A stretch of 64,000 nt of DNA from an uncultured Eubacteriales bacterium (GTDB lineage Bacteria > Bacillota > Clostridia > Oscillospirales > Oscillospiraceae), in contig ONEB01000011.1 of NCBI GenBank assembly GCA_900316745.1, positions 6,105 to 70,104 of the forward strand, in the 5' to 3' direction. Shown piece by piece: positions 15,956 through 33,009 of the stretch. The translations under genes and the position numbers were made by a program. Within the stretch, counting starts at the first letter, position 1. The number at the start of each line of letters is the position of its first letter. The notes beneath the pieces were generated by a model. The model was given only the letters and a program-made list of their open reading frames with translations, did no database searches and was not told where the DNA came from.

Positions 15956-18900
15956 TTACGACTGTCTGGCGCGGGACATCTCGAATACGGTGTCCGCGAT
16001 GTTCATGGTGCTCTCCCGGTGCGAGACGAGAACGACGGTCTTCTCCCCTGCGCTCTCGCTCAGAGATTGGAGGATCACGCCCTCGTTGAGGGCGTCAAGG
16101 TTGCTGGTCGGCTCATCGAGCAGCATCAGCGGCGCGTCGTGCAGGAAGGCGCGAGCCACGCCGATGCGCTGTTTCTCGCCGCCGGAGAGCGTGTCGCCCA
16201 GCTCCCCGACCGGAGTGTCGTAGCCCTGCGGGAGCGACCGGATGAAGTCATGCACAGCAGCCTTCTTTGCCGCTTCCACGATCTCTTCCCGTGTGGCGTC
16301 GAGCTTGCCGATGGCGATGTTGTTCGCGATCGTGTCCTTGAAGAGCACCGTTTCCTGTGTGACGTAGGATTCCAAATTACGCAGGCAGGCGGTGTTGATC
16401 CGGCGCACATCCGTGCCGGAGAGCGCGACCCTGCCGCCTGTGACGTCCCAGAAGCGCATGAGGAGCTTCAGAAGCGTGGACTTGCCGGAGCCGCTTGGGC
16501 CGTGGATGCCGAGGATCTTTCCCTCCTGGAAGTCGAGCGAGAGGTCGTGCAGGATCTCTTCCCCGCCGTAGGAGAAGGAGACCTGCTCCGCCGCGGCGCC
16601 GGCGAAGGCGACGACCTCGCCGCCGGAGACCTCCTCCACCTCGGGCTCCTCCTCCAAAAGGCGCAGCACGCGCTCGCCGGATGCGAGCGTCTGGTTGAGG
16701 TTATTCGAGAGGCTGCTCAGCGCCACGACCGGGCCGAAGGAACCCATCATCGCGACCGTGACCAGCAGCGCCGTGTGGAAGTCCGCCGCGCCGCTGCGAT
16801 ACGCCGCGAGCATGAAAAACAGCATTCCGATGGAAAACAGCTCAATGAGCAGGTTCGTGACCGCGCGCTGGCTCTGCTCAAAGCGGTTGAGCTCCTTTTG
16901 CTCCTTGCCCATGGCGCGGGAGCGGCGCGTGATCTCGCCCATGCGTTTGGCGCCGTGCCCGTACTGGATGGTCTCGTCCAGACCGCGCAGGGACTCCAGC
17001 ATGAAGCTGTTCATCTCGCCGAAGCACTCCCGGAAGGACATGCCTGCAACGGCGCTGCGGCGTCCGTTCCAGAGCGGGACGATGAGGCCGACCGCAAGAT
17101 AGCCGCAGAGGGCAATCAGCGCGGCGCCGAGGGAACGTGTGCCGATGAAGATCAGCATGATGACCGATACAATCACGGCAATGGCAATGGGAGAAATCGT
17201 GTGCGCGTAGAACACCTCCAGCAGCTCGATGTCCGCCGTGAGAATGGAGATGAGGTCGCCGCGATCCCTGCCCTCCAGCTTTGCCGGGCAGAGCCTGCGC
17301 AGCACGGCAAAGACCTTATGCCGGATGATGGCAAGGAGCTTGAAGGCAATGAAGTGGTTGCAGTACTGCTCGCCGTAATGCAGCAGACCGCGGGCAACGG
17401 CGACGACGATCAGGATCGTGGTGAGCGTTTTGGTGGTCCGCTCGGTCATAACGAGCACAACGCCGTGGCTCGCGAGGATCGTGAGCGAAATGGCACAGAG
17501 ATAACCGACCACGCCGAGGAAGATGGCAAGGAGCATGACAGGCAGCAGTGGTTTCACCAACCCGATAAGTCTGCCCATGATGGCGGCACCGGAGCGGCGC
17601 ACGCCGGGCGTTTTTTCCTTTGCCGCCGTCTTGGCGGTCTGAACCTGCGCGGGCTCTGCCGTCTCTGCCTCCACGCGCTCGGCGTTCTTGGCGGCGTAGG
17701 CCTCGAGCTTCCGCTGCGTTTGGAATAGATCGGCGTATGAGCCGTTTTTCGCGAGCAGCGCCGCGTGGTCTCCCTGCTCGGTGATGGCTCCATCTTCGAG
17801 GAAATAAATCCGGTCGGACGGCACGACGTTCGCGAGGCGGTGGGAGATGAGCAGCACGGTGCGCTCCCTGGCGAGCTTGTGAATGACCTGCATGATGAGC
17901 TCTTCGCTCTCCACATCGATGTTGGACGTGGCCTCGTCGAAGATGTACACCGGCGTGTCGTGCAGCAGCGCGCGGGCGAGCGCCAGACGCTGGCACTGGC
18001 CGCCGGAGAGGTTGCTGCCGCGCTCGGCGATCTCGGTATCCAGTCCGTCCTGCGCCTCGACGAAGCGGCGGAGATTCACCTGCTCCAATGCCGCAAGCAG
18101 CGCAGCGTCGTCCGCATCGGGATTGCCCAGAAGCAGATTGTCCCGCACGGTGCCCTTGAAGATCGTGCTGCTGTGGGTGACGAGGGTGATGTGCCGCATG
18201 AGGCTCTCCTCGTTCAAATCCCGCAGCTCTCTCCCCTGCACGGTGATGCTGCCGGTGTAGCCCTTGTTGCGGCCCATGAGAATGCCCGCGATGGTGCTCT
18301 TGCCGCAGCCGGAGAGGCCGACGAGGGAGGTAAAGCTCCCGGCCGGGAGATCGAGGCTCACGCCGCGCAGCACCGGGTGCTCCTCGGTGTAGGCAAAGCC
18401 GACGTTTTCCAGATGAATGCTGATCGGATCGTCCGTGAGGACCTCCGTCTTCTGCTCCGGCTCCGGGGTATCGAGGAAGGAGAAGATGCGGTCGCTCGCG
18501 GACATGCCGTTCATGGCGATGTGGAAGAACGAGCCGAGAATGCGCAGCGGGATGAAAAACTCGCTGGCCAGCAGAATCGTCATCAGCGCTGCGGTCAGGG
18601 TGATCTTCCCCTGCGCGAACTGCGCGATCGTGACCGCCATGCCGATGGCAGCGCCGCCGTAGGCCATGATGTCCATGACGGAGGTGGAGTTGAGCTGCAT
18701 GGTGAGGACCTTCATCGTCACCTTGCGGAAGGTCTCGGACTCGGCGTCCATGTCCTCGGCCTTTTTCTCGTCCGCCCGGTAGATCTTCAGCGTGGTCATG
18801 CCCTGCAGATTCTCCAGGAAGCTGCTGCCGAGGGAGTGGTAAATATCCAGATACTTGTTGATGAAGCGCTTTGCGATCTTCTGCACAGCCACGATGGACG

Positions 18901-19411: not shown

Positions 19412-19412
19412 A

Positions 19413-20210
19413 TCAATCTTTCCTTTCCGGCGCGGGAATGGTTTTCACAAATCCGAAGAAATAGATCACATGCGCGACCCAAACCACCGCGAGGATGATG
19501 CAGGGCACCCAGATGTCCTTGCGAGCCATGAGAAAGAAGCCCACGCCCATCAGAAGCGTCACCATGGTCACAATGCTGAGCTTGGTTTTCAGGAGCATGC
19601 CTTCCTTTTTGACATAGGATTCCAGATGTTTCTTGTACAGCGAGGTGCCGATGAACCAATGATGCAGCTTTTCCGAGCTCTTTGTAAAGCAGAAAAGCGT
19701 CGCGAGGAAAAACGGCACGGTCGGCAGAATCGGCAGGACGACGCCGATGGTGCCCAGCGCGAGGCACAGGAAGCCCAGCACGATCCAGAAGATCCGAAAG
19801 CGGGATTTTGCTTCGGTCTGCGCCGGGGTCTGTTCGGTTTGTTCGGTCAGATTTTCCATGGGTACCACGTCCTTATTTTGTCTGCGCTGTTCCCTTTTGG
19901 ACTCTATCACGTGAGAAGCCGCCATCACGGGATGATGAAAGATCATCCGCGGGCCGGAAAAGCGCATGACCGCGCGGATCTTTTCGCGCATTTCCGGCTT
20001 GTAGCAATGGACGCGGCAGTTGGAACAAAAGGTCTTCTCTTCCATAAACGGGCAGCGGTCGCTCCGGGATCGGGCATACTGCTCCAGCTCGGCGCACTCA
20101 GGGCAAAGCTCTGTCTTTGTCCCGTGCTGCTTTTTGCAGTAAAGCCGGATCATCAGAGATACGACTTCCTTTTCCTTCTCCCGTTTGGATGTGATCTTCG
20201 CGTCTTCCAT
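19413..20210 (-). CDS. Fusion of a YgbA-like (nitrous-oxide-stimulated-promoter family) Cys-rich domain and a YbaN/DUF454 membrane domain
   Basis: N-terminus MIRLYCKKQHG...CPECAELEQYA...CPFMEEKTFCSNCRVHCYKPEMREKIRAVMRFSGPRM. C-terminus GTIGVVLPILPTVPFFLATLFCFTKSS... Confidence 0.6.
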   Translation of the reverse strand: MEDAKITSKREKEKEVVSLMIRLYCKKQHGTKTELCPECAELEQYARSRSDRCPFMEEKTFCSNCRVHCYKPEMREKIRAVMRFSGPRMIFHHPVMAASHVIESKREQRRQNKDVVPMENLTEQTEQTPAQTEAKSRFRIFWIVLGFLCLALGTIGVVLPILPTVPFFLATLFCFTKSSEKLHHWFIGTSLYKKHLESYVKKEGMLLKTKLSIVTMVTLLMGVGFFLMARKDIWVPCIILAVVWVAHVIYFFGFVKTIPAPERKD

Positions 20211-20211: not shown

Positions 20212-21009
20212 TCAGGCGGTCAGAACGACCTTGCGGCCGTCCACCTCCACGACGTCGAGCCGGATGCCGTAGAGCGCTTCGATGCTCTCGGCGGTGATCG
20301 CATCCTGCGGCTCGCCCTGCATGGAGACCACGCCGTCCTTGAGACCGATCACGGCGTCGGAATAGGTGATGGCCTGGTTGATGTCATGCAGCACCATGAC
20401 GATGGTGATGCCGTATTCCTTGTTCAGCTTGCGGATGAGCTCCAGAATCTCGATCTGGTAGCGAATATCCAGATAGGTCGTCGGCTCATCCAGCAGGAGG
20501 ATCTTCGTATTCTGCGCAAGCGCCATGGCGATCCACACGCGCTGACGCTGGCCGCCGGAGAGACGCCCGACCTCCCGATTACGGAAAGGCACAATGTCCG
20601 TGACCTCCATCGCCCACTCGATGATGCGCTCGTCCTCCTCGGTCTGCGCCTGCATCATCTTCTTATACGGTGTGCGGCCGAAGGACACCAGCTGCTCCAC
20701 GGTCACATCGTCGCTGACGGTGTTGTACTGGTGGACAATGGCGACCTCTCTGGCGAAGTCCTTCAGGGTAAAGTTGCGGATGTTCTTCCCGCGGATGAAA
20801 ATGTCTCCCTTGCGGGCAAAAAGGTTTTTCGTCATGAGCAGAAACAGCGTGGACTTGCCGCAGCCGTTCGCGCCCATGATGGTCGTGATCTTGCCCTCCT
20901 CGATTTTGAGAGAGGCGTCGCGCAGCACCTTGTTTTTTCCGTAGGCAAAGCGCAGGCCGCGCACCTCCATGGCGGGCTTGGGCTTTTTGCTCTGCGTGTT
21001 ATTTGGCAT
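20212..21009 (-). CDS. Iron-complex/haem ABC importer ATPase (FecE/HtsC-like)
   Basis: GANGCGKST, LSGGQRQRVWIAMAL, LLLDEPTTYLD, VLHDIN. Confidence 0.9.
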   Translation of the reverse strand: MPNNTQSKKPKPAMEVRGLRFAYGKNKVLRDASLKIEEGKITTIMGANGCGKSTLFLLMTKNLFARKGDIFIRGKNIRNFTLKDFAREVAIVHQYNTVSDDVTVEQLVSFGRTPYKKMMQAQTEEDERIIEWAMEVTDIVPFRNREVGRLSGGQRQRVWIAMALAQNTKILLLDEPTTYLDIRYQIEILELIRKLNKEYGITIVMVLHDINQAITYSDAVIGLKDGVVSMQGEPQDAITAESIEALYGIRLDVVEVDGRKVVLTA

Positions 21010-22048
21010 ATCGCTTCGACCTCCTCAGAAGCAGAATGAAGAACGGACCGCCGATCACGTTCATGATGATGGAAGCCGAGACCTCATAGGGCGCAGCGAT
21101 GGTTCTGCCGAGGGTATCCGCGAGCAGGAACACGAACGCGCCCAGCAGCATGGAGTACGGCACCAGCTTTTTGTGATCGCTTCCGACGAGGATGCGGCCG
21201 ATGTGCGGCACGATGAGGCCGAGGAAGCTGATGACACCGACCACGGCGGTAGAGATGCTGGCGAGGATCGCCGCGATGATGGAGATGATGATGCGCGAGC
21301 GGTTGACGTTCACGCCGACGCTGCGGGCGGTCTTATCCTCCAGACTCAGGAGGTTGCAGGTGCCGCAGAAGAACACCGACAGGATCAGTCCCAGCGCAGC
21401 ATACGGCAGAAGCGTATACACGTCGTCCCAGGTCTTCATGGTGATGTTGCCGTTGACGATGGAGGCAACGCCCTGCATGTTGCCGCCGTTCATGGAGTTC
21501 AGTGCGCTTGAAAGGCCCGTGAACATGGCGCTCACGGCGACGCCCACGAGGATGATGCGCAGCGGGCTCAGTCCGCCCTTCCACGACAGGCTGTACACCA
21601 GCGCAAAGGCGAGGCAGCCGCCGATGCAGGCGATGATGGGCATGAAGAAAAACAACTCCGGCAGAAACGCCGTGACCGCCACGGCAAAGAAGCTCGCGCC
21701 GCCGGAGATGCCGATCACGCCGGGGTCGGCGAGCGGGTTTTTCAGCACGGCCTGAAACAGCACGCCGGACACCGCAATGGCAGCGCCTGCGAGCATAGAG
21801 ATGAAGATGCGGGGAAAGCGCAGATCGCGGATCGTGTCCACGGTGTCGTTCGGCTCTGAGAACAGGCCGCGCAGCAGCTCGCCGAAGCCCACCTTCAGCG
21901 AGCCGATGTTGATCGCGGCGAAAAACAGCGCCACAAGCAGCACCGCCGTGAGCACAAAGGCCAGCACGGACACGACTGTCTTGCGTTTTTGGCGCGTCAC
22001 ATCCAATGCCTCTGCGGGGATCTCGGTTTTTTCCGGTTTTGTTTTCAT
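20999..22048 (-). CDS. FecCD-family ABC importer permease
   Basis: 349 aa with about 9-10 hydrophobic helices and FecCD-like motifs (RDLRFPRI, GLIVPHIGR). Confidence 0.85.
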   Translation of the reverse strand: MKTKPEKTEIPAEALDVTRQKRKTVVSVLAFVLTAVLLVALFFAAINIGSLKVGFGELLRGLFSEPNDTVDTIRDLRFPRIFISMLAGAAIAVSGVLFQAVLKNPLADPGVIGISGGASFFAVAVTAFLPELFFFMPIIACIGGCLAFALVYSLSWKGGLSPLRIILVGVAVSAMFTGLSSALNSMNGGNMQGVASIVNGNITMKTWDDVYTLLPYAALGLILSVFFCGTCNLLSLEDKTARSVGVNVNRSRIIISIIAAILASISTAVVGVISFLGLIVPHIGRILVGSDHKKLVPYSMLLGAFVFLLADTLGRTIAAPYEVSASIIMNVIGGPFFILLLRRSKRYAK

Positions 22049-22063: not shown

Positions 22064-23170
22064 TTAATTGGCATGGGTCTGCATGCCCGGCAGATCGTCG
22101 TCGTCATAGAGTGTGGAGGCGTTGGAATCCACAGCCTCCTGCGCCGCGTTCTCACTGTTGGCGCGCGCCTTTTCCAGATCCTCTTCACTTTCGGGATACA
22201 GGATCGGCTGCAGCTCTTCGAGCGCGTCGGGATAATTGAACTTCGCGCTCATGCCGAAATTGTCATAGCTCAGATCGTAAACTCTGCCCTCCTGCACGGC
22301 CTTGAAGTGCCGCCAGATGTCGTTCTCGGCAAATTCCTTGTTGAACATGGCGATGATCTGATCCTCCGGCAGCGCGTGGGCGCAGCGGAGGATGATGTCC
22401 GGCTCCTTGGTTTTCATGTCCTCGGTATTCACGGTGAGAAACTCCTGATCCGTGCCGGCATAGACGTTCTCCCCGCCCGCAAGCGCGACGAGGCTGCCGA
22501 CATAGGAGTTTTCCGTGGCAATGATGTAGCTGCCGGGGACGCCCATGAGGATGAGCACCTTCGGGTGCTCCTTGCCCTCATTTCTCTGGCTGTATTCACT
22601 GTAGAAAGCAATGAACTCATCCACAAGCGCCTGCGCCTGCTCCTGCTTGCCGAAGATCTCGCCCAACTCCTGAATGGAGCGGTACATACCCTGCACGCTG
22701 CGCAGGTTCAAAAAAGCCCAGTCGGTATCGATTGCTTCATACTTCGGCTGCAGATCGCTCTGCAGGCTGGAGGGGCTGAGCACCCAGTCGGGGTGCAGGG
22801 ACGCGACGATCTCCATATCCGGGCTCATGGCAAGACCGACAATCGGAAGATCCGCATAGCGCTCCGGGATCTCGGAGACGTTGGACTTGCAGACGCCGAC
22901 GAGCTCGAGCTCGAGCTTGTCGCAGATATCCGCGACGGCGGGCGACGTGGCGATGATACGCGGAGTGCCGCCCATGCTCATGACCTTTGCCTTCGCCGCC
23001 TCCACAGCGGCCCTCTCGGTGGGGTCGGTGATCTCCAGCAGCGTTTCGGCGCGCTGGACGCTTGCGGATTGCTCGTTTTCTTTCTTTCCGCAGGCACAGA
23101 GACTCAGTACCATGACGAGAGACACCAGCGCCGCGACGGTGCGGAAAAACGGCTTATTCTTCATCGTCAT
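22064..23170 (-). CDS. Lipoprotein substrate-binding protein of the iron-complex/haem ABC importer
   Basis: Signal peptide with a lipobox-like LCAC; class III periplasmic-binding-protein-like layout (RIIATSPAVADI...DPDWVL...KEPDIIL). Confidence 0.75.
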   Translation of the reverse strand: MTMKNKPFFRTVAALVSLVMVLSLCACGKKENEQSASVQRAETLLEITDPTERAAVEAAKAKVMSMGGTPRIIATSPAVADICDKLELELVGVCKSNVSEIPERYADLPIVGLAMSPDMEIVASLHPDWVLSPSSLQSDLQPKYEAIDTDWAFLNLRSVQGMYRSIQELGEIFGKQEQAQALVDEFIAFYSEYSQRNEGKEHPKVLILMGVPGSYIIATENSYVGSLVALAGGENVYAGTDQEFLTVNTEDMKTKEPDIILRCAHALPEDQIIAMFNKEFAENDIWRHFKAVQEGRVYDLSYDNFGMSAKFNYPDALEELQPILYPESEEDLEKARANSENAAQEAVDSNASTLYDDDDLPGMQTHAN

Positions 23171-24152
23171 CCAAGCCTCCGCCCCAGCGATACCAGTTTT
23201 TGCGGATATAGATGATGAGTCCCGCCGCGACTGCCATAAGAATGCATCCGGAGATCAGGATCGAAAGCACATTCACGAGGATCTGGCTCCCGACGCCGCC
23301 GGGGGCGGCGGCTGCGGCAGTCTCGTTCTCCGCCGTGGAGAGGCTGAGCCCCTGCGCAGAGGAGAGCGAGGAATCCGTATCCGGCGCGGGGTTTTCGTTC
23401 ACAGGATCGGTGAGCTTGGTCTGGAGCTCCGGCGCGCCCTCTGCCGAGGGAATACCGCCTTCGGTGGAGCCGGAGGCCTTGTTGTTGGAGGGCAGTGTGC
23501 TGTTGCCCGCGCTGACGGTGCCGCTGCCCGCGGAAGTTCCGCCGGACACACCTCCGCTTGCCGCGCCGTTATTCGATGCGGCTCCGCCGTTGTCCGCGGC
23601 GTCCGCCGTGATGAAGGAGGGCGTCATGTCCGTGGAGTTGCCCGCGTTGTAGTTGCTGGGATACATGTACCACACAACGTCGCGGCCCATGGGCTCGACG
23701 TACATGCTGCCGCGCAGGACGCAGCTCTCGTTCGGGACCTCGATGCAGATGTCTGCAGTGGTGCCGTTGGTGTCCGAGCCATAGCCGACAATGCCTGCAG
23801 CGGGGCTGCTCCAGGCGCTGTCACCCACGTTCTGCACCCAGAAGGTATGGCCGGAGGTATAGTCCATGAGGCTCATGCGGATGGTGAGATAATAATGCCC
23901 GTCCGCCGTGACCTCCATGATGCCGGTGTCATAGACACAGCCCTCGACCATGCCCTGACCGGTGGCGTAGGAGCCCTCGCCGCCGCTGTCCTCGATCACG
24001 CCGGAGACCGGGTGACGATAGCAGCGGTTGATCGTGCAGGTATAGACATTGCCGCTGACCGCCTTGGCACTCATACCGACCGCAGCGAACATCGAGACGG
24101 TCAGCGAGAAGCAAAGCAGTAGCATGGCGAGCTTTTTCAGATAGGTTCTCAT
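23154..24152 (-). CDS. Shp-like cell-surface haem-binding protein with C-terminal TM anchor
   Basis: N-terminal domain YTCTINRCYRHPVSGVIEDSGGEGSYATGQGMVEGCVY...GSDTNGTTADICIEVP...RGSMYVEPMGRDVVWYMY closely matches my recollection of Streptococcus pyogenes Shp. This is followed by a low-complexity linker, a TM segment and an acidic tail. Confidence 0.7.
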   Translation of the reverse strand: MRTYLKKLAMLLLCFSLTVSMFAAVGMSAKAVSGNVYTCTINRCYRHPVSGVIEDSGGEGSYATGQGMVEGCVYDTGIMEVTADGHYYLTIRMSLMDYTSGHTFWVQNVGDSAWSSPAAGIVGYGSDTNGTTADICIEVPNESCVLRGSMYVEPMGRDVVWYMYPSNYNAGNSTDMTPSFITADAADNGGAASNNGAASGGVSGGTSAGSGTVSAGNSTLPSNNKASGSTEGGIPSAEGAPELQTKLTDPVNENPAPDTDSSLSSAQGLSLSTAENETAAAAAPGGVGSQILVNVLSILISGCILMAVAAGLIIYIRKNWYRWGGGLDDDEE

Positions 24153-25510
24153 GCTTCTTCCTTCCCCTTTTTCTTCTTTGTGGCGATCATGACGCCAGTG
24201 AAAAGAGCGGCGTTAAGCGCTGTGAGCGCGGCCACCACCGTAATGACGTTTCCACGCTCATCACCGGTCTGGGGGGTATGTGCATTGCCGTTTTTCAGCG
24301 AGGCGTTGCCGCTGGCCAGAGATTGATTCCCGGTCGTGCCGCCGTTTTTCAGCGTAAGGCTGCCGTTTCCGTTCAGACCGGAATTGCCGCTCAGGCTCTT
24401 GTTCCCAGAGGGCAGCGTGTTGTTGCCCGAGGGCAGGGTATTGTTCCCCGGCAGGCCGGTGTTGCCGCTCAGGCCGTTTCCGGTGGAGAGATCTACCAGC
24501 GCGTAGGGACTGAACTTGTCCGCCGCGAAGACATATTCGCCGTTTTCCGTCGTACCCTTGACCACCGCGGAAGTTTCGCCGTCAAAGTGATAGGCCGTGA
24601 GTCTCGCGGCGTTGAAGCCCTCGGGAATGGGCAGACGCACCGTGACCGCCTGCGCGGGCTGCACGATCACGCCCTCGACGTTTTCAAAGTGGATCTCATA
24701 CAGCTTGAAGCTCTTGCCGCTGATGAACGCATTGTTCTTCGCGGTGTCGTAGGTCTCGCCCTCGGTGATTTCCTCGATGACGAGCATAATGTCCGTGCTG
24801 AATGCGCCCTCGGGCACCGTGACCGTGACGCCGGTCACGGGGTCCGTGATGGAAACGCTGTTATCCTCAACCGGCTCGTCCGGCGTAGCGGGCGCGGTGG
24901 GATCGGTATAGGGCGCGAGGCGGGCGTCATCTGCCGAGACCTGCTCGAGCGTGGACCAGTCCAGCTTGAGGTACACTGGCTGGGTACCGTTGCCCTCGGA
25001 GATGCTCTCCATGACCGCGACGAAGACCTGCAGCGGAACGAGGCCGTTCTCTCTCGCCTCGGGGATCATGGGATAGGTCAGCGTGCGGGGATAGTCCGTG
25101 CCGAAGGTGTCGGAAAAGCGGCTGCCGTCGTCGTTCAGCTGGTACGACAGGACTTCCGCATCGGCGGTCGTGCCCTGCGGATAGCCGTATGCCGTCTCGG
25201 TGTAGCCGGTCTCAAAGTATTTCAGTGTGCCGAGATAGCCGCGCTGGGAGCCGATGGTCAGGCCGTCGAACTGCATGGTGATCATGCAGACGCCGTTTTC
25301 CACCGTAAGCAGGACATTGTGATTGATGGTTTTGTCGGCCATGGACGCGGTGGTCTTGTCGTTCTTCACCATGTCGCCATGGATCAGGTAGATGCCGTCC
25401 GCGAGTGCGTCCGTGTCCGCCGCCGCGACGGGGATCGCCGCGAGCGAGACCGCGAGCACCAGCACGAGCAGCACGCTCAGCAACGTCCGGGTAGGATTTC
25501 GTTTTGTCAT
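24149..25510 (-). CDS. Secreted NEAT-like haem-binding protein with a sortase-type sorting signal (TPQTG plus TM plus KKKKGK)
   Basis: Signal peptide. NEAT-like domain at aa 36-188 (DGIYLIHGDMVKNDKTTASMADK...VAVMESI...VYLKLDWSTL). SGN-rich stalk. C-terminal HTPQTGD-hydrophobic-KKKKGKEEA. ATGA overlap with the Shp-like gene. Confidence 0.65.
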   Translation of the reverse strand: MTKRNPTRTLLSVLLVLVLAVSLAAIPVAAADTDALADGIYLIHGDMVKNDKTTASMADKTINHNVLLTVENGVCMITMQFDGLTIGSQRGYLGTLKYFETGYTETAYGYPQGTTADAEVLSYQLNDDGSRFSDTFGTDYPRTLTYPMIPEARENGLVPLQVFVAVMESISEGNGTQPVYLKLDWSTLEQVSADDARLAPYTDPTAPATPDEPVEDNSVSITDPVTGVTVTVPEGAFSTDIMLVIEEITEGETYDTAKNNAFISGKSFKLYEIHFENVEGVIVQPAQAVTVRLPIPEGFNAARLTAYHFDGETSAVVKGTTENGEYVFAADKFSPYALVDLSTGNGLSGNTGLPGNNTLPSGNNTLPSGNKSLSGNSGLNGNGSLTLKNGGTTGNQSLASGNASLKNGNAHTPQTGDERGNVITVVAALTALNAALFTGVMIATKKKKGKEEA

Positions 25511-25545
25511 GATTTCTTCCTCACTTCTATTTCTTATTTCTAAAT

Positions 25546-26379
25546 TTACAGTATGAATACCGCCACAGCGACCGACTCCGGCATGTGCATGATGCCAACG
25601 TCGCAGCGCATGGAGAGCTTTGCGCTTCCGTGCAGCACCTGTCTACCGTCAGACAGGATATTCTGAAAGCGCATACGGAAGGCCGGGAATGAAAACACGT
25701 CGCCCTCCTGGTCGCAGGGAATGTACATTTTCCCCTCCATGTATTTCACGCTTTCGACCTTGCCCTGCATCTCCAGCCCGCTGACGCGGGATTTGGCGAT
25801 CATGGGCTTGCTCGTCATATAGAACGTACCGAAGCCGTGATGCACCTTGAAAATGGAAGGCTGCTCAAAACCTGCGTTGGCCATGGAAAGAATGTCAGGG
25901 CTTTTGCCGCGGCCATTTGCACGGTAAATAAAAAACGGTACTCTGTACTCCCCGTCCGGCAAATGACGGCAGAGCTCTCCGCCGGAGACCTGTGTGCGAT
26001 CCTGAACGGCAAGCTTTGCCCGATAAAGCCGTGCAGACTGCAGTCTGGCCGGACTGATCTCTTCGGAACCGTAAAGCGTCAGGTAAGAGGCGTCATGCGT
26101 CGCATCCTCATAAGCTGCGCCCTCATTCAGCAGGTGATACAATTGGATTTGAAATCTCCGATCCAACGCACGCGCAGACTCGATTCCCTGTTCTGTCAGA
26201 TGCGGGCTGATATTCGGATCCATTTCGAGCAATCCTTCCGCCGCGAGCGCCTGCATACCTTCGCGGATCTCGCGCTCTTCACACGCAAAGCTTGACGCAA
26301 GCATACGTTCCGAAACATCGTCCGAGCCAGCGTGGAGCAGCTGCAGCAGGATCTTGAATCGCAGCAAATCCTTATTCAC
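25546..26379 (-). CDS. DtxR/MntR-like N-terminal wHTH regulator with an uncharacterised ~150-aa C-terminal domain (paralogue 2)
   Basis: N-terminus ...LTEQGIESARALDRRFQIQLYHLL... fits the DtxR HTH/dimerisation layout. 277 aa. It ends 35 nt upstream of the NEAT gene. Confidence 0.55.
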   Translation of the reverse strand: MNKDLLRFKILLQLLHAGSDDVSERMLASSFACEEREIREGMQALAAEGLLEMDPNISPHLTEQGIESARALDRRFQIQLYHLLNEGAAYEDATHDASYLTLYGSEEISPARLQSARLYRAKLAVQDRTQVSGGELCRHLPDGEYRVPFFIYRANGRGKSPDILSMANAGFEQPSIFKVHHGFGTFYMTSKPMIAKSRVSGLEMQGKVESVKYMEGKMYIPCDQEGDVFSFPAFRMRFQNILSDGRQVLHGSAKLSMRCDVGIMHMPESVAVAVFIL

Positions 26380-27209
26380 AGCGTAAACACCACCACCGCA
26401 GCGGATTCTGGCATATGCGCGATGCCGACGTCGCAGCGCATGGAGAGCCGCACCGACCCGTGCAGCACCTGTCTGCTGTCAGAGAGGATGTTCTGGAAAT
26501 GCACGCCCGCCGCCGGGAAGGAAAACACGTCCCCGTCGCGTTCGCAGGGAACGTACTCCCGCCCGCTGATGTACTTCACGCTTTCGACCTTGCCCTGCAT
26601 CCGCAGTCCGGTGACGCGGGACTTTGCGGTCATGGGCTTGCCGGTCAGGGAAATGGTTCCCACGCCGTTGACCACGCGCAGCTTCGCAGGCTGCTCAAAG
26701 CCCGCGTTCGCCATGGAGAGGATGTCCGAGCTTCTGCCGCGCTCCTTGGTTTTATAAATGAAAAACGGCACGCTGTACTCCCCGTCGGCAAGATGTTTGC
26801 AGAATTCCGCACCTCTGATCTGTTCCTTGCTGCGCAGCGCCAGCTTTGCCCGGTAATACTGATCAGTCTCGCGGCGGGCATAATTGGTCGCGTCAGAGCA
26901 GTACAGCGCCATGAAGTAGGCGTCATGCATCGCATTCTCCTCGTCCACGCCCTCATAGAGCAGATGGTGCAGATTGAGCTGGATCTTTTCGTGATACTCC
27001 TGCGCGGTTTTCAGACCGCGTTCGGTCAGGCGCGGGCGGCGGTTGTCGCTCATATCGACCATGCCCTCGTCCTGCAGCTCATGCATCATGTTGCTAATGT
27101 AGGTCTTTCCGTAGCCGAAGATTCGGGCCAGAGACGTTACAGAGATCGCTTCCTCACTCTGCTCGAGGAATTGAAGCAGAATTTTCATCTTCAGCAGGTC
27201 CTTGTTCAT
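26376..27209 (-). CDS. DtxR/MntR-like N-terminal wHTH regulator with an uncharacterised ~150-aa C-terminal domain (paralogue 1)
   Basis: LARIFGYGKTYISNMMHELQDEGMV...LTERGLKTAQEYHEKIQLNLHHLLYEGVDEENAMHDA. 277 aa. 4-nt overlap with paralogue 2. Confidence 0.55.
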   Translation of the reverse strand: MNKDLLKMKILLQFLEQSEEAISVTSLARIFGYGKTYISNMMHELQDEGMVDMSDNRRPRLTERGLKTAQEYHEKIQLNLHHLLYEGVDEENAMHDAYFMALYCSDATNYARRETDQYYRAKLALRSKEQIRGAEFCKHLADGEYSVPFFIYKTKERGRSSDILSMANAGFEQPAKLRVVNGVGTISLTGKPMTAKSRVTGLRMQGKVESVKYISGREYVPCERDGDVFSFPAAGVHFQNILSDSRQVLHGSVRLSMRCDVGIAHMPESAAVVVFTL

Positions 27210-27513
27210 TACGATCCGCTCCTTTTCGTTTTTCTTTTAAAACGTCCGTAACTTTACCCTCCGCACACCGGATTTTGCTGTGCGGACGATAAAGCTATGG
27301 TCATTTGTGCGATCAGATCGCTCAGTTTATGATTGTTCCTCCCTCAGAAAGCACCGCGTTGGCACGGTGCTTTCCAAAGAAGTGAGGATATTCCCCTTTT
27401 TCATCCCGAGCGGAGGATCACGCTTTAGCAGAAGGAAGGTCTGCTCCGCTCGGGATGACACGCGGGGGATTGCGTGCTTGCCCTTGCCTTCCCCCTCGGG
27501 GGAAGGCTTTTCT

Positions 27514-30500
27514 TTACGCCATATCCCGGTACAGGAACGTGACGACCTGGCCGCGGGTGCAGGGCTTGTCCGGGCTGAAGTGCGTGGCGTCCGTGCCGTT
27601 GGTGATCTGCGGGTTGTGGTTCACCGCCCAGAGCACCGCGTCGGTGTAATACTGTCCGGCGGGGACGTCGGCGAACGGATTGCTGCTGCCGGCGGCGGGC
27701 TTGTTCTCCGCGCGCCACAGGAACGTGACCACATGGGCGCGGGTGCAGGGATCGTTCGGGCTGAACGTCGTGGCGCTCGTGCCGTTGGTGATGCCGTTCT
27801 CGTTCGCCCACAGGACGGCCTTGTAGTAGTAATCCGAGGCCTTGACGTCGCTAAACGGATTGTTCGTGGTCTTCGGCTCCGGGCACCCCTTGGCGCGCCA
27901 CAGGAACGTGACGACCTGACCGCGCGTGCAGGTAGCCATGGGGCTGAAGTGCGTCGCGTCCGTGCCGTTCGTGATCTGCGGGTCATGGTTCACCGCCCAG
28001 AGGACGGGATCGTAGTAGTACTGGCCCTGCGCCACATCGACGAACGGATTCTTGACGTCCAGCTTCGGGATCTTGTGCGTCTCGGTCTCGCCGCAGACGG
28101 AGCAGGTACGGGTCTGCTCACCCTCGGCGCTCGTCGTGGCGGCCTTGGTGACCTTCCACTCGCCCCAGGTGTGACCCTTGGCGGCAATGGTCTCGCCCTG
28201 CTTCACGGTCTCACCGCAGACGGTGCAGACCTCGTCGCCGGTGTAACCGGCCTCGGTGCAGGTGGCGGCCTTGGCGTTCTTTACTTCGGTCTTGTGGCCG
28301 TCCGCGCAGGGATCGACATATTCCGCAGCCTTGTCCCAATCAAACACAAGGATGGCGTTCTGATCGAAGCCCTCCATGGCGTCGACATGAACACGGATAA
28401 AGATCTCATTCTCAGCATCGCCGCTGCGCTCGATGGCAACGGTCTTTACAAAGGTGGAGGTTCCACCGTTCAGATCCTTGTCCTGATAAGTTGCGGTGAC
28501 GGCAGCAAGCACCGGATCGGCCAGCTTATTCGCGGCATCGCGGTCAGCAAAGCTCCACATCTCCAGCAGATGACCGAAGGAAGTACCGATCGTGACGCCC
28601 TTGAGATTCAGGCTGTAAGTCAACTTGCCGTCCTTGACGGTTACGATGGCGTTGCCGTCCAGCGCGGCGTTGCCCATGGATTCCTTATCCGGGCTTGTGA
28701 AGTTCATCATCTTCACCGGAACGCTGTAGACGCCATCAGCGACAGGAGCCTTCTCCACTGCGGTGAGTTCAGTGTCCGTCGTAGCAACGGCAGTGCTCCA
28801 CGTGAATTTCAGGCGCGCGTCCATGCCATCAGGCATTGTGAGATCCATCGGCGTGTCGGGCACGGTGAAGTGCGCGGGCACATAAGTAATCTCGTTGGCA
28901 GCGGGAGCCTCCGTATTCAGGTTGAAGGAGGCGCGCTTGATGTACTTGTAGTCATTCCCGGTCTCACCGGAGATGATGGTAGTCAGGTCTCCGGTCTCCT
29001 GCACAGTCACAGGCTCACCATTCACAGTCATGGCAGTGATGGCAGTGTAGTAGCCAGTAAGATCCACAGGATTGGTGGCAAACTGCACGGTGGTGATTTT
29101 CCCGTCCTTCACAGTGACAAGAGCCCTCGGATTCAGCTCAAATGCCTTGCTGCCCATACTGGCCTCATCCGTTGCGGACTTCCAGAGCGTCATATCCACA
29201 TAGTAGTTGCCGTCATCCGGATAGGCACTCTGCTGGGTTCCGGAGTCATCGGTCTGATAGGTCTTGGTGCTGATTGCCCAGACGGAGAAGTGCGTGGTCG
29301 TCCAAGCCGCATTGCCGCCGGCAACAGTGGCGGTCTGCTTGTCTACGAGCTTGCCGTTCTTGATCTGGTAGGCATAGGCGCTGGTTCCGTCGGTGAGCTC
29401 GGTGGGCACACTCACGGTGGCCTTGCCGGAGCCAAAGTCCATATCCTTGCCGTCCACGGTCAGATTGAGCAAATACGAGGTATCGAACTTGTTGCCTGCT
29501 TTGGTAGAGATGCTGCCGCTCTTCTCGATGGAGAGAATCGCGGGCGCGTCCTTTGTGGCAGTCTCGCTGATCTGCTTTAAAAGCGCGCTGTCGAGCGTGA
29601 TGATGCCGACATTGGTGGTGATCTCCACGGGCTTGCCGCTGTCTGCAAAGGCCTTGGCAACCGACTTCGGCAGGACAACTGCAGTTGCATCAGCCGCGTC
29701 CTCGGATGCAGCGTTCACGCACACCTTATTGCTCTGGATGGAAATGCCCTTTTCTCCATTGGTGGTCAGAGCATCGCCCGTAAGCGTCGCGGTCACTTTT
29801 CCGCCGCTGGCTTCCACGGAGGCAACCTCCACAGGCTTCGAGCCTTTGGGTGCGACGGTGACGGAAATCTCCTTGGAGATCACATCAGTGCTGTCGCTGT
29901 TATTCGTCAGCTTGACGGTGACGGTGGTCTCACCAGCTGCAACGCCGGTCACGGTAACAACGCCGTCTTTCAGAACAGCGGTAGCAATGGACGCGTTGCC
30001 GCTTTCGGTGGAAAGGGCGTAGTCGTCCGCATTCTGCACGGTGACTGCCACGGTATCGCTGGCAGCATTGGAATCGCCAACAATAACGGAGACTTCCTCT
30101 TTATCAAGCTGGAGGCTGGGGAAATAGTGGTCAAGCGTCAGGGTATCCCACTGGATGGCGAGATCGGCGCGCTGCTTGCCGATGCCGAGCGCGTTCATCA
30201 TATCTACGCTTACCCGAATCAAATGCCGATTATCTTCCGCACTGTGATAGTAAAGAGGAAGGCGAACGGTATAGGGGTAACACTTCTGCGAACCATCGGA
30301 GTTATATACATGACCGTGGTCATGTTCGTCTGTGCATTCAATTATATTTGTGCTGGAACTTGCGTCTGTGTACCAGTTCTCAACTGGCACATCTTCAACA
30401 ATGCCATTGGTCGCGGCGGCGCGACTTGAGCCAGAATATGTTTCAAGTCCAACTAAGTGCCCCCACTTTCCAAAGAGATACAAAGGTTTGAAACGCACAT

Positions 30501-33009
30501 AAAGCGTGTAGCTACCATCTTGAACGTAAAGTTGCGCGTATGACTCTACAGCCCCGTTTGCCATTGATGTGCTATCTGTACCATTTGCGTAAACTACGAC
30601 GCCGACTTTGTAAACGCCATCGTTTAGACTGTTTGGATCGAGTTCAGATTTGCCTTTCAGATTATCTACCGCTCGCATGAGAGCGTTATATGTGTAGTCG
30701 ATCTCAACTTGGCTGGCGTTGACTGCAACAGATGTGAAAGTTCCATCGGAGTTGATTGAAACAATAGATTCTGCGGACGCAATTGCCGTGTTCAAAACAG
30801 CCAGCGAATCAGCGGTATATGTATTGGCATCCGCAGCCTTTTGATTTGCCATTTTCAGCGCATTCACGAGATCATCCAGATACTGATAAGTAAATACGTA
30901 TTTTTTCCCGTTAGCATCGGTAGCTGTATAAACTGTTCCATCCTTCCCAATGCGTTCAGTTGTAAACAGGCTCTTTCGCGTTACAATGCCATAATATCCC
31001 TCATAATCGCCCGAGGTTTCCGCTTTTGGGGAAAGAATATAATATCCCTGATTTGTGTCAAATGTCAGATCAGTGTCATTCTGGGAATTATAGCTGTCAA
31101 TCCAATCTTGCGTATATTCACTGTCCGCTTTATAGGTAACAGTTACACTGTCCGCAAAAGGCTTATCCGTAAACTTAAAATAGCCACCATTGAGAAGAAT
31201 GGTTCCTGCATTTGCATAGTTAATTGATGTAGTGCCACCTTCAAATTTAGCATTATCTTCAATTGTCAAGTTCACAGTTGAAGCGAGCACGCTAACTGCT
31301 GTACCGTTTTGTGAAGAAATATAGGCGTTGCCATTTACAATCACAGATTCGCGAGCCTCAAACTTGAGCGCCGTGTCTGCATTAGGACCAATATTTTTAA
31401 TTATCGCATCTCCGCCGATTTCTATCGGGTTAGATATGTAATTTAATGTAACCGTATCTTTTTCTGACGTGATAGTTCCGCCAGTAATTCTTACTGTTTC
31501 AAGGCCACTCACCGCAACACAACCTGAAATATCACCGCCCGTAATAACGAGTGACTTTCCACCAAGTACTGCATTGAGATCAATAGCATATTCTGTTGCA
31601 GACACATTTCCCTGTGTGATCGTGACAGAGCCCTGATGTTTTACGCCCTTAAACGCAATCGCTGTATCAGCTCCGCTTAACTCACCGCCATTAATGTCCA
31701 AAGAGCCGGATTCTCCTAATGTAATACCATAACTGCATGCGAATTTAATTTTGCCCGTTCCAATGCTGTCGGTGATAACTAACTTACCTGAGTTTACATG
31801 AATCGCACCAGCTTTTGCAGATGTAGCGTAAGGGGCAAGGGAAAGAATATGACCATTCAAATCAACTGAGACATCTCCACTTATTGCCGCACCAGTTTTT
31901 TGATTGGTCCAAGTCGAGTCATTCTGCAGGACAATGGTGCCACCATTTTTTGCTGCTGCAAAAGCCTCCTTTACACTCTTATAGTTGGCAACCTCCCCAC
32001 CCGCTGGAGTAACAGTTAAATCTCCAGAGTCCGTTTCGACCGGCGCGGTTTGAATACAAAAACCCTTCTCGGTCTCGTCATACATTAGAGATTTTCCTTC
32101 AGGCGTAATGATATCCGCATAGCTTTCAAAAGCTACACCAACATCTGAGGACGGTGATTTCAGAAGTCCACCGACTACTTCAGTAAGGCAGCCTGAAGCA
32201 GCAATAATTGGAGAAGCCGTTACCAGTTCCCCACTTTCAACCCTTATTTTACCTGTTATTGCATTCGTGGAGCTCATACGAGCAAAAATACTACTCTCAG
32301 CAGACAGATTAAAATTCTTCAAGATAATCTCATCAGTAGAATTCCAGCTCGTCAATTCAAAAACAGCTTTTGAGGTGCTTGTAAATGTTCCCGACCCACC
32401 AGTGACGTGAAACTTTCGACTATGAGTATCAGCAGAACCGCCTCCGTCGAGCAAATAATTCCCTGACATAGCACAATTTACGATTTCAATCGTCGAATAA
32501 TTGCCAACCGCAAAACAGGGCTTCTCTATTGTTATGCTGTCAAATTTAGCAACAATCTGATTCTCAGAGTTATTAACAATGCTTATCTTTGCATTAGCAG
32601 AATGACTCGTTAGCTTACCCGAATTAGCAGAAGAACTGTCTCTAACGGTAAAATTACCCGTTACCTCCATCGAGTTACCTCTAAACGAATATGTAAAGCC
32701 ATTTAAATCTAGTGTAATCGTCTTCCCAGTTGGATAATTAAAGTTTTCAGCCTTTTTTGCAGCTATGAAATCGGAATTAAGCTTTATCGTAACATCGTCA
32801 AGATTTTGTTCTGTGATATAAGCTCCAACTCCACTTAATGTCGTAGTATCGCCGGTGTAATTGATCTCAGTTCCATTGGAATCGAAAAGTGTAAAGCCTG
32901 GCTCACCCTCCGCTCTCGCCGCCGGCGTCATCGCCGGGAACAGCGACAGCACCATCAGCACCGCCAGAACGAGCGACAGCACACGGTTGGTTGTCTTCGT
33001 TTTTTGCAT
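27514..33009 (-). CDS. Giant (1831 aa) SLH-anchored surface protein: signal peptide, beta-helix-like repeat region, three NEAT-like domains, Ig-like (Big_2-like) domain, Cys-rich ribbons, three SLH domains
   Basis: Signal peptide ...PAARA/EGE. G-x-I/V repeat-rich region at aa ~40-620. NEAT-like segments at aa ~796-957, 1265-1406 and 1424-1562. CxxC ribbons (CTVCGE, CSVCGE). SLH x3 (FVDVAQGQYYYDPVLWAV..., FSDVKASDYYYKAVLWA..., FADVPAGQYYTDAVLWAV...). Confidence 0.85.
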   Translation of the reverse strand: MQKTKTTNRVLSLVLAVLMVLSLFPAMTPAARAEGEPGFTLFDSNGTEINYTGDTTTLSGVGAYITEQNLDDVTIKLNSDFIAAKKAENFNYPTGKTITLDLNGFTYSFRGNSMEVTGNFTVRDSSSANSGKLTSHSANAKISIVNNSENQIVAKFDSITIEKPCFAVGNYSTIEIVNCAMSGNYLLDGGGSADTHSRKFHVTGGSGTFTSTSKAVFELTSWNSTDEIILKNFNLSAESSIFARMSSTNAITGKIRVESGELVTASPIIAASGCLTEVVGGLLKSPSSDVGVAFESYADIITPEGKSLMYDETEKGFCIQTAPVETDSGDLTVTPAGGEVANYKSVKEAFAAAKNGGTIVLQNDSTWTNQKTGAAISGDVSVDLNGHILSLAPYATSAKAGAIHVNSGKLVITDSIGTGKIKFACSYGITLGESGSLDINGGELSGADTAIAFKGVKHQGSVTITQGNVSATEYAIDLNAVLGGKSLVITGGDISGCVAVSGLETVRITGGTITSEKDTVTLNYISNPIEIGGDAIIKNIGPNADTALKFEARESVIVNGNAYISSQNGTAVSVLASTVNLTIEDNAKFEGGTTSINYANAGTILLNGGYFKFTDKPFADSVTVTYKADSEYTQDWIDSYNSQNDTDLTFDTNQGYYILSPKAETSGDYEGYYGIVTRKSLFTTERIGKDGTVYTATDANGKKYVFTYQYLDDLVNALKMANQKAADANTYTADSLAVLNTAIASAESIVSINSDGTFTSVAVNASQVEIDYTYNALMRAVDNLKGKSELDPNSLNDGVYKVGVVVYANGTDSTSMANGAVESYAQLYVQDGSYTLYVRFKPLYLFGKWGHLVGLETYSGSSRAAATNGIVEDVPVENWYTDASSSTNIIECTDEHDHGHVYNSDGSQKCYPYTVRLPLYYHSAEDNRHLIRVSVDMMNALGIGKQRADLAIQWDTLTLDHYFPSLQLDKEEVSVIVGDSNAASDTVAVTVQNADDYALSTESGNASIATAVLKDGVVTVTGVAAGETTVTVKLTNNSDSTDVISKEISVTVAPKGSKPVEVASVEASGGKVTATLTGDALTTNGEKGISIQSNKVCVNAASEDAADATAVVLPKSVAKAFADSGKPVEITTNVGIITLDSALLKQISETATKDAPAILSIEKSGSISTKAGNKFDTSYLLNLTVDGKDMDFGSGKATVSVPTELTDGTSAYAYQIKNGKLVDKQTATVAGGNAAWTTTHFSVWAISTKTYQTDDSGTQQSAYPDDGNYYVDMTLWKSATDEASMGSKAFELNPRALVTVKDGKITTVQFATNPVDLTGYYTAITAMTVNGEPVTVQETGDLTTIISGETGNDYKYIKRASFNLNTEAPAANEITYVPAHFTVPDTPMDLTMPDGMDARLKFTWSTAVATTDTELTAVEKAPVADGVYSVPVKMMNFTSPDKESMGNAALDGNAIVTVKDGKLTYSLNLKGVTIGTSFGHLLEMWSFADRDAANKLADPVLAAVTATYQDKDLNGGTSTFVKTVAIERSGDAENEIFIRVHVDAMEGFDQNAILVFDWDKAAEYVDPCADGHKTEVKNAKAATCTEAGYTGDEVCTVCGETVKQGETIAAKGHTWGEWKVTKAATTSAEGEQTRTCSVCGETETHKIPKLDVKNPFVDVAQGQYYYDPVLWAVNHDPQITNGTDATHFSPMATCTRGQVVTFLWRAKGCPEPKTTNNPFSDVKASDYYYKAVLWANENGITNGTSATTFSPNDPCTRAHVVTFLWRAENKPAAGSSNPFADVPAGQYYTDAVLWAVNHNPQITNGTDATHFSPDKPCTRGQVVTFLYRDMA
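27517..28047 (-). repeat. Three tandem SLH (S-layer homology) domain repeats inside the giant gene
   Basis: Three ~58-aa units with F-x-DV...YY...A-V-L-W-A...ITNGT...F-SP...CTR...VVTFL-W/Y-R. Confidence 0.85.

Follow-up and report, generated by a model that had tools for sequence, protein, structure and literature searches.

The DNA analysed in this study is a 64-kb stretch of contig ONEB01000011.1 from an uncultured Eubacteriales bacterium (the window; all coordinates are window positions). On its minus strand, ten co-directional open reading frames (ORFs) between 15956 and 33009 probably form a self-contained operon for haem acquisition and haem homeostasis, carried as cargo by an integrative and conjugative element (ICE) of a gut or rumen Clostridia bacterium and controlled by a haem-sensing repressor, named RegA here. 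The most unusual feature of the locus is the occurrence of two regulator-NEAT fusions, RegA and RegB, together with a candidate operator. We lean towards the view that RegA, RegB and their relatives constitute a new class of haem-sensing transcription factors, in which a cytoplasmic NEAT domain takes the place of the DtxR/MntR metal site; through the palindrome GTTAG-N6-CTAAC, they would control a hitherto unrecognised haem regulon of commensal gut Clostridia (Shr/Shp/IsdE uptake, CydDC-like exporters and YgbA/DUF454), and the ICE would spread a self-regulated copy of it.

From 33009 downwards, the ten ORFs encode a giant SLH-NEAT surface protein, RegA, RegB, a second surface NEAT protein, a Shp homologue, a haem-binding lipoprotein, a FecCD-family permease, an importer ABC ATPase, a YgbA-DUF454 fusion and a fused ABC exporter. 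A preliminary description of this DNA, made from the letters alone, had given the same ten genes with the same order, coordinates and tight packing, all of which were borne out by the ORFs and by Pfam and NCBIfam profile searches.

Regulators with a DtxR/MntR-type N-terminus and a NEAT fold

RegA (277 amino acids (aa); 26376..27209, minus strand) is composed of an MntR/DtxR-type region in residues 1-125 and a NEAT fold in residues 135-277 (nucleotides (nt) 26379-26807). RegB (25546..26379, minus strand) is its tandem paralogue and has the same architecture, with the NEAT fold at nt 25549-25977. The two proteins are 56% identical and lack a signal peptide, and the GTG start of regB overlaps the stop codon of regA. 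They had been taken for two ordinary regulators, which could not be maintained, since each has a further NEAT fold with the DG-x-Y and S-M motifs. Assignments to ordinary MarR, GntR or IclR regulators were also considered and rejected, as the matches were weak and covered the helix-turn-helix only.

In a PDB profile search, residues 1-125 of RegA matched Escherichia coli MntR (2h09) with E 4.7e-12, and by Foldseek the N-terminus was superposed on Bacillus subtilis MntR with a target template modelling (TM) score of 0.74 and a root-mean-square deviation of 2.2–2.9 Å. The helix-5 motif of MntR holds metal-binding residues. In the family of RegA, this E-x-x-E-H motif is not kept and the metal motif DAEGMEHH of MntR is aligned with DAallaly, so the metal site is lost.

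The C-terminal domain of RegA hit IsdX1 and Hbp2-N2 (E 2e-5) in the PDB profile search. In the AlphaFold2 (AF2) model of RegA, with a mean predicted local distance difference test (pLDDT) score of 84, the top Foldseek matches are the NEAT structures 4nla, 4myp, 3sz6, 3sik and 4h8q (probability 1.0, target TM 0.52-0.59). When the family C-terminal domain was compared with Shr-type NEAT domains by hhalign, the probability was 98% and E was 8e-14, and the lip residues Ser165-Met166 of RegA were aligned with the Ser-Met of the Shr lip. Conservation was summarized for 114 full-length family members: G143 is found in 96%, Y145 in 91%, S165 in 88%, M166 in 70%, F171 in 90%, Y213 in 92%, P232 in 97%, H265 in 54% and M266 in 61%, and 65 of the 114 have both M166 and M266.

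The fusion is not confined to this ICE. A HMMER profile scan of 1.84 billion representatives yielded 110 matches at E<1e-30 and 318 at E<1e-10, mostly 255-297 aa long and full length; counted as clusters at 50% identity, the family comprises at least 110, in gut Clostridia, while a word-indexed search for it recovered 7 clusters only. Their public names are hypothetical protein, MarR family, Mn-dependent DtxR family, MntR and, by automatic annotation, "Iron Transport-associated domain-containing protein".

In species-representative genomes, we collected 80 loci by means of the peptide patterns SMAN.. and HMPES.., taken from an alignment of 8 sequences. Nearly all of them belong to gut Clostridia (Lachnospiraceae, Oscillospiraceae, Ruminococcus and Acutalibacteraceae), including isolates such as Lachnospira intestinalis, Diplocloster spp., Faecalicatena contorta, Merdimmobilis hominis, Pseudoflavonifractor sp. 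An85, Eubacterium sp. AF22-9 and Brotonthovivens ammoniilytica, and the closest regulators in these genomes are at most 47% identical. Some loci with the Clostridia-type regulator (L014, L034, L069, L071 and L030) lie in bins labelled Bacteroidaceae, Alloprevotella, Bacteroides, Desulfovibrio piger or Coriobacteriaceae, and these labels are likely to reflect mis-binned contigs or transfer by mobile elements. Tandem duplication of the regulator is rare, with two copies in only one of the 80 other loci.

The genes beside the regulator were scored in eight families. Almost all loci with at least 8 kb of downstream sequence (51 of 52) have the regulator followed by haem uptake genes and/or CydDC-like, YgbA or DUF454 genes; Shr-NEAT, Shp, IsdE or FecCD genes are present in 37 of the 52, and CydDC-like, YgbA or DUF454 genes in 40. 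The uptake genes are always located on the same strand and downstream of the regulator, and the CydDC-like, YgbA and DUF454 genes are upstream of it in a few loci. The existence of the family, its architecture and its linkage with haem genes are established by comparative genomics, as is the enrichment of the palindrome described below.

The regulators can be compared with two groups of known proteins. DtxR, IdeR and MntR have the same N-terminal winged helix and dimerisation fold, and in DtxR and IdeR a third domain also follows the dimerisation domain at the C-terminus; however, the metal motif is lost in the family described here, and a NEAT domain replaces the SH3-like domain. HrtR, FhtR and HatR of the TetR family, as well as PefR and HsmR of the MarR family, are alike in the role predicted for RegA, namely a cytoplasmic haem-responsive repressor of transport genes, whereas their DNA-binding families are unrelated, the sensor here is a NEAT domain, and the regulon adds uptake to export. 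If the assignment is true, the NEAT regulator would be the sixth scaffold among the known haem-responsive regulators.

A survey of 343 NEAT domains reported "No cytosolic proteins", all of them being extracytoplasmic (PMC4143258), so a cytoplasmic NEAT domain, if true, would extend the family beyond its surveyed range. We found no description of a regulator-NEAT fusion in the literature searched, which included reviews on NEAT domains and on haem regulation, and such absence is no proof of novelty. As regards haem use by gut commensals, the family provides a concrete set of genes that is widespread, along with candidates for the sensor and the operator; cultured carriers exist, for example F. 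contorta with the orthologue WP_109712906.1. Strong effects of haem on the growth of isolates from the Lachnospiraceae and Ruminococcaceae have been described, with a cause that the authors of that study left unexplained (bioRxiv 10.1101/2022.01.25.477750).

The candidate operator and the predicted response to haem

The leaders of the regulator genes contain the palindrome GTTAG-N6-CTAAC, which can be extended to R-GTTAG-Y-N4-R-CTAAC-Y. The related loci, 1.285 Mb in all, hold 195 exact copies, compared with about 1 expected. The palindrome stands beside the regulator in 72 of 82 loci; in 45 loci it is located 38-135 nt upstream of the regulator ATG, often right after a recognisable -35/-10 pair, and in 59 loci it precedes the next gene. 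Further copies precede the genes of large NEAT surface proteins, Shp, FecCD and CydDC-like proteins, as well as those of another family of paired ABC exporters.

The window contains a sole exact copy at 33233..33248, which reads GTTAGATATTGCTAAC on the plus strand and AGTTAGCAATATCTAACA on the coding strand and is the predicted operator. It lies 224 nt upstream of the ATG of the giant NEAT gene, and the -10 box of a sigma-70-like promoter candidate at 33294..33323 (minus strand; -35 TTGAAA, 18 nt, TG-TAAAAT) precedes it by about 46 nt. This promoter was assigned from its consensus match only (10 of 12 positions), and it is the best such element on the minus strand within 25400-33700. The position of the window site fits the pattern of the family, in which the operator precedes large NEAT surface proteins. 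As no GTTAG-type site precedes regA, the most plausible start of the operator-controlled transcript is at the giant gene, from which it would run through regA and regB into the transport genes.

A perfect inverted repeat of another kind, CCGCACA-N11-TGTGCGG (27261..27285), occurs once in the window, in the 94-nt leader of regA, and may act as a further operator or as an RNA hairpin. In L004, a second metagenome contig that carries a related ICE, the sequence of the leader is unchanged (100% identity), and the DNA further upstream is unrelated. Besides, an operator-like site with one mismatch, GTTAGACATGGCTAAT, is found at 15017-15032; the genes on its two sides encode an OmpR-type regulator in which no receiver domain is clear (15116-15811) and an esterase (13871-14818). 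With 0.57 such sites expected per window, this one may have arisen by chance.

We infer from these data that RegA is a cytoplasmic repressor with a haem-binding NEAT domain, that it recognises the palindrome, and that haem alters its DNA binding. RegA would sense cytoplasmic haem through this domain on a DtxR/MntR scaffold that has given up its metal ligands. The lip Ser165-Met166, homologous to the Shr ligand, would provide one side of the haem pocket, and the second ligand is likely Met266 or His265 in the HMPES loop. Bound at 33233-33248, downstream of the giant-gene promoter, the protein would repress the whole operon of about 17 kb.

RegB would have a different part. Family positions K35, S39 and R40 of the recognition helix are conserved in 82% of members each; RegA has K, S and N there, and RegB has E, R and E. 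With acidic residues in this helix, which reads E/R/E and not K/S/R, RegB probably does not recognise the same DNA as the family and may be a non-DNA-binding paralogue. It keeps the NEAT motifs despite E35, R39 and E40, which would be possible for a heterodimer partner or a haem buffer; in our model, RegB probably modulates RegA in the former way or buffers haem.

As for the direction of the response, we are inclined, with modest confidence, to haem as a co-repressor, that is, to feedback repression. This preference follows the DtxR paradigm, in which proteins of the DtxR/MntR family bind DNA when ligand-bound, and the feedback logic by which cofactor scavenging is usually repressed. The opposite logic is possible, though we hold it to be rather less probable: apo-RegA would repress and haem would release it from DNA, so that uptake and exporter genes would be haem-induced as with HrtR, FhtR, HatR and PefR. 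To our knowledge, all characterised Gram-positive cytoplasmic one-component haem sensors are de-repressed by haem, and the regulon does include ABC exporters (the CydDC-like pairs and a second family), which are typically haem-induced. However, importer and CydDC share one operon in the window, where an opposing detoxification pump would not be expected, and this arrangement again agrees better with feedback repression.

Several observations weigh against haem sensing by RegA at this palindrome. With regard to the protein, RegA scores 27.2 bits against Pfam NEAT (E 5.6e-6), below the cut-off of 32.8, and RegB has no match to this profile. M166 and M266 are absent from 30-40% of the family, and the second axial ligand is uncertain (M266, H265 or M257), the alignments placing the late Met of Shr 1-4 residues away from M257 or M266. 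The 80-locus set is skewed to the Met-bearing subset because it was retrieved by SMAN.. and HMPES... With regard to the DNA, the operator was assigned by co-localisation only; upstream of regA, no GTTAG-type site was found with up to two mismatches; and N40 of RegA stands against R40 of the family, so the DNA specificity may have drifted. With regard to the locus, it encodes no haem-degrading enzyme.

The low Pfam score of RegA and the members lacking Met would be compatible with a NEAT fold that does not bind haem at all, and some NEAT domains are known to bind haemoglobin and not haem (PMC4143258). Such a domain might bind another ligand, for example a different tetrapyrrole, or serve oligomerisation or protein contact only. 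We consider this unlikely, in view of the lip Ser-Met that is aligned with the Shr haem ligands, the near-exclusive association of the family with haem uptake genes and CydDC-like exporters, and the loss of the metal site from the scaffold, which calls for another ligand-sensing module.

The DNA raises a separate question, namely whether another host regulator, such as an iron-responsive DtxR/IdeR protein, binds GTTAG-N6-CTAAC, the NEAT regulators acting elsewhere or as haem chaperones. The core of the DtxR boxes TTAGGTTAGCC... and ...GCCTAACCTAA equals the half-sites of the palindrome (PMC524172), and the partly diverged recognition helices of the window regulators, like the lack of a site upstream of regA, would be explained in this way. 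We nevertheless regard it as improbable: the spacer is 6 nt in the palindrome and 1 nt in DtxR boxes, the sole exact site in the 64 kb precedes a haem gene, and in 45 loci from many genera the site is right upstream of the regulator gene, as is typical of autoregulation.

The proposed haem relay and the importer and exporter genes

The giant gene (27514..33009, minus strand) encodes 1831 aa, comprising a signal peptide, an all-beta passenger (about residues 31-790), three Shr-type NEAT domains and three SLH repeats. Pfam NEAT (PF05031) matches three stretches of it with 67.3 bits (gathering cut-off 32.8). The first NEAT domain (N1; residues 791-957; 30139..30639, minus strand) has S815-M816 in the lip and M937/M938 late in the domain, and it matches a hidden Markov model (HMM) of Shr-type NEAT domains with E 5e-43. 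The third (N3; residues 1420-1560; 28330..28752, minus strand) has S1444-M1445 and M1545 at these positions (E 3e-32). Between them, N2 (residues 1260-1409; 28783..29232, minus strand; S1284-M1285 and P-M1388) is divergent, yet a real NEAT domain: the Shr-type HMM covers its first 46 residues only, while hhalign covers the whole domain with 96.7% probability and E 4e-10. The three C-terminal SLH repeats (27517..28092, minus strand; Pfam SLH E 5e-22, 77.9 bits) agree with the SLH domains first noticed and would serve as a non-covalent cell-wall anchor. For the passenger, five sub-segments were searched against Pfam at E up to 5 with nothing meaningful found, phmmer gave no PDB match, and a single-sequence AF2 model had a pLDDT of 47.5, too low for a fold search; "beta-solenoid-like" is only an impression of its sequence.

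The second surface protein, NEAT453 (453 aa; 24149..25510, minus strand), is of the Shr type. It reaches 34.0 bits with Pfam NEAT (cut-off 32.8), and its residues 34-188 are aligned with the Shr NEAT structure 9w5y at E 4e-40, with ESM on ASM and PIM on AVM. N1, N2 and N3 of the giant protein are aligned at both Shr Met positions as well. The features that had been noticed at first sight recur in all four surface NEAT domains: DG-x-Y at the start, S-M in the lip, a late Met and W-(D/S) at the end. The Shr type is marked by Ser-Met in the lip and another Met at the beta7/beta8 hairpin. The canonical Isd Tyr type is characterized by YxxxY on the late strand (beta8), from which the tyrosinate ligand comes, and no such motif was found there in any of six NEAT-type domains, that is, the four surface domains, in which its absence had already been pointed out, and those of RegA and RegB; a single YxxxY, YAQLY at residue 824 of N1, lies early in the domain. 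Crystal structures of Shr published in 2025 display bis-Met ligation by Met390/Met475, with a hydrogen bond from Ser389, and by Met997/Met1107 (PMC12796733). By sequence, the surface NEAT domains are accordingly classed as the Shr-type bis-Met kind, as was first suggested.

The Shp homologue (23154..24152, minus strand) has a C-terminal membrane anchor and scores 185.6 bits with Pfam HemeBinding_Shp (PF11545; E 6e-55); in the alignment with 2q7a (E 2e-40), both Met motifs seen before, GQGM and GSM..EPMG, are kept. The lipoprotein (22064..23170, minus strand) is a Peripla_BP_2 protein of the IsdE/HtsA type, with 388.1 bits for the IsdE equivalog TIGR03659 (cut-off 298.65), and it matches Listeria Lmo2184 (E 5e-70) and Staphylococcus aureus IsdE 2q8p (E 3.5e-62) in the PDB, the aligned Met and His of the latter being kept. 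A siderophore or B12 binder was rejected as an alternative, since the IsdE score far exceeds the others; a grouping with siderophore or cobalamin binders had been named beforehand as the outcome that would count against a haem relay. The permease (20999..22048, minus strand; Pfam FecCD E 5e-90) and the ATPase (20212..21009, minus strand; Pfam ABC_tran, and the iron-complex and haem ATPase families of NCBIfam) complete the importer. Thus, each profile assignment proposed for the NEAT, Shp, SLH, FecCD and binding proteins was supported by Pfam and NCBIfam.

Junctions in this part of the string are a 4-nt overlap (NEAT453/shp), a 17-nt overlap for the ATG at 23170 or 14 nt for the start called in metagenomes (shp to lipoprotein), a 15-nt gap (lipoprotein to permease), an 11-nt overlap (permease to ATPase) and 1-nt gaps on both sides of the YgbA-DUF454 gene. 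The statement that all junctions from 25510 to 15956 measure 15 nt or less therefore holds within 2 nt, the largest overlap being 17 nt.

Four anchoring modes follow each other from outside to inside, namely SLH repeats, the TPQTGD sorting signal of NEAT453 (followed by a transmembrane segment and a KKKK tail), the C-terminal helix of Shp and the lipobox-like N-terminus of the binding protein. We propose that the SLH-anchored protein captures haem at the cell periphery with its three bis-Met Shr-type NEAT domains; the haem would then pass to NEAT453 and to membrane-anchored Shp, which would hand it to the IsdE/HtsA-type lipoprotein with its Met/His ligands, for import via FecCD and the ATPase. 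The Shp ligands Met66 and Met153 and the HtsA ligands Met79/His229 are experimentally established (PMC5026354). The identity, order and ligand residues of the uptake components are strongly indicated by homology.

Three published systems are close to this part of the locus. The Streptococcus pyogenes sia/hts operon (shr-shp-htsABC), which is repressed by the DtxR-family protein MtsR, has the same bis-Met Shr NEAT domains, Shp, Met/His binding protein of the HtsA/IsdE type, FecCD importer and gene order, and likewise DtxR-family control. In contrast to Shr, no haemoglobin-interacting (HID) or LRR domains were detected here, the outer receptor is SLH-anchored and the second receptor has a sortase-type signal; moreover, the regulator lacks metal ligands and has a NEAT domain, and CydDC, YgbA-DUF454 and ICE carriage are added.

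The C. perfringens Cht locus (ChtD/ChtE and ChtA), with the "Clostridial Group" of NEAT domains, shares Tyr-less NEAT domains with a conserved Met, and it shows that a Shp-like NEAT protein and an HtsA-like binding protein, too, occur in Clostridia; ChtD and ChtE bind haem (PMC5026354; PMC4143258). That locus is chromosomal and belongs to a pathogen, whereas the organisms here are commensals of the Lachnospiraceae/Oscillospiraceae type, and the text of the Cht paper (PMC5026354) mentions no regulator, DtxR or SLH. B. anthracis BslK combines SLH with a haem-binding NEAT domain in one protein and passes haem inward (PMC4143258, and in part PMC7815599). However, the single NEAT domain of BslK is of the Tyr type and hands haem to IsdC, while the giant protein has three of the Met type, a passenger of about 760 aa and Shr-/Shp-type partners.

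The preliminary description regarded the locus as a streptococcal-style relay re-anchored through SLH, which suggests import from streptococci, and did not recognise the combination as described. Neither point was sustained. Gut Clostridia have the module as a native and widely distributed trait, seen in 80 species-level genomes, and its novelty was overstated, since clostridial NEAT domains that lack the Tyr and keep a Met, and the SLH-NEAT combination of BslK (PMC4143258), as well as the haem-binding Shp-like/HtsA-like locus of C. perfringens (PMC5026354), are already published, and Shr homologues have been noted in clostridia (PMC9945957). What is new in the uptake part is the SLH-anchored Met-type NEAT protein, the linkage with CydDC and YgbA-DUF454, and the carriage by an ICE; the rest is a predictable relative of streptococcal and clostridial systems.

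The last two genes encode a fusion of Cys-rich YgbA_NO (Pfam E 4e-47) with a DUF454/YbaN membrane domain (E 4e-34) at 19413..20210 (minus strand), and an exporter with two membrane and two ATPase domains in a single polypeptide at 15956..19411 (minus strand). The latter had been called a fused ABC exporter; both the fusion and the exporter type stand, and NCBIfam sharpens the assignment to CydD-CydC (CydD 673 bits, cut-off 435; CydC 539 bits, cut-off 329). Both halves thus exceed the equivalog cut-offs for CydDC, which in E. coli exports cysteine/glutathione and haem; here, however, the exporter is one fused polypeptide, is co-regulated with haem import and has no cydAB in its locus. Beside the CydDC-like genes of the related loci L015 and L022, no cydAB was found either.

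Among the 80 related loci, YgbA homologues occur in 13 and DUF454 in 26, together with CydDC-like genes. Where the loci were inspected (for example L018, L053, L056, L058, L064 and L089), YgbA_NO and DUF454/YbaN, fused or separate, adjoin the CydDC-like genes, a conserved linkage of two families without assigned function. The operator also precedes, in many related loci, a second pair of ABC half-transporter exporters that are no more than 25-30% identical to CydDC (L011 15-3612, L013 29-3569, and also L025, L038 and L064), which suggests that further exporters may belong to the regulon.

The exporter bears on the purpose of the locus as a whole. Many related loci consist of the regulator with CydDC-like and DUF454 genes only, and a haem oxygenase or an anaerobic haem-degrading enzyme is absent from the window locus. 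Both facts would suit a locus devoted mainly to haem tolerance or redox protection, with CydDC as its core and surface proteins that sequester toxic haem. We find this doubtful, as a complete co-transcribed importer (IsdE equivalog, FecCD and ATPase) would be needless for sequestration. In the acquisition operon that we favour, the CydDC fusion and YgbA-DUF454, being co-transcribed, would act in the same pathway and are unlikely to oppose import; their candidate roles are the delivery of haem to envelope haemoproteins and the export of a thiol reductant.

The ICE and its variants

The locus is carried by an ICE of about 59 kb. Upstream of it are genes for YpsA, a coupling protein, a Toprim protein, a MobL relaxase, an SLH protein, a CHAP hydrolase and a VirB4-like ATPase, of which the transfer genes for the coupling protein, Toprim protein and relaxase (34953..39121, minus strand) adjoin the cargo. 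Further along are a sortase, a T-Q adhesin, YodL/DUF3846, two DNA methyltransferases and two ArdA-like proteins, up to about 60 kb. Downstream of the locus lie cargo methyltransferases and hydrolases, a helicase and serine recombinases; two serine recombinase genes (1110..3526, minus strand) mark the presumed left end. The ends of the element are approximate and would be given by these recombinases at 1.1-3.5 kb and by a flip of strand and GC skew at about 60 kb. The occurrence of the coupling protein, MobL relaxase, VirB4-like ATPase, CHAP, sortase, ArdA and serine recombinases in one block agrees with the earlier designation of the locus as ICE cargo. By such carriage, regulated haem acquisition can spread horizontally among gut and rumen anaerobes.

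The comparison with L004, a related ICE with the same kind of cargo, divides the locus into a constant and a variable part. Its backbone is 98.9% identical and its cargo is a variant: the core cassette (27300-16330) is 93.8% identical, the promoter/operator segment 90%. For the giant gene (4606-8562 in L004), the signal-peptide and SLH ends have 94-95% DNA identity, and the middles are unrelated. The conserved core thus begins 94 nt upstream of regA, and the giant SLH gene is a variable accessory of it. In the window, the N-terminal half of the giant gene (30-33 kb) has 45% GC compared with 58-63% in the rest of the locus; together with the alike ends and unrelated middles, this suggests that the passenger region may be exchanged between ICE variants in a cassette-like manner. 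ParE/Phd and HepT/MNT toxin-antitoxin pairs are inserted in L004 on either side of the SLH gene. No near match of the core cassette was found among the PLSDB plasmids.

Some genes of the ICE itself may take part in anchoring. Its T-Q/SpaA adhesin (47281-47493) ends in TPKTGD and a transmembrane segment, a sorting signal of the same type as TPQTGD of NEAT453 (24149-24330), and the ICE encodes a sortase (44279..45151, minus strand; Pfam Sortase), a candidate anchoring enzyme for NEAT453, so this cargo protein may use the ICE's own sortase. In addition, a 230-aa SLH-repeat protein is encoded at 39881-40573 inside the conjugation module, and for this reason the host envelope probably supports SLH anchoring, which the ICE itself would use.

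Beyond the haem locus, a second cargo block is located at 9322-14818. It contains genes for an alpha/beta hydrolase, three class-I SAM (S-adenosylmethionine) methyltransferases, a leucine-carboxyl-methyltransferase-like protein, a PEMT/ICMT membrane methyltransferase and an esterase.

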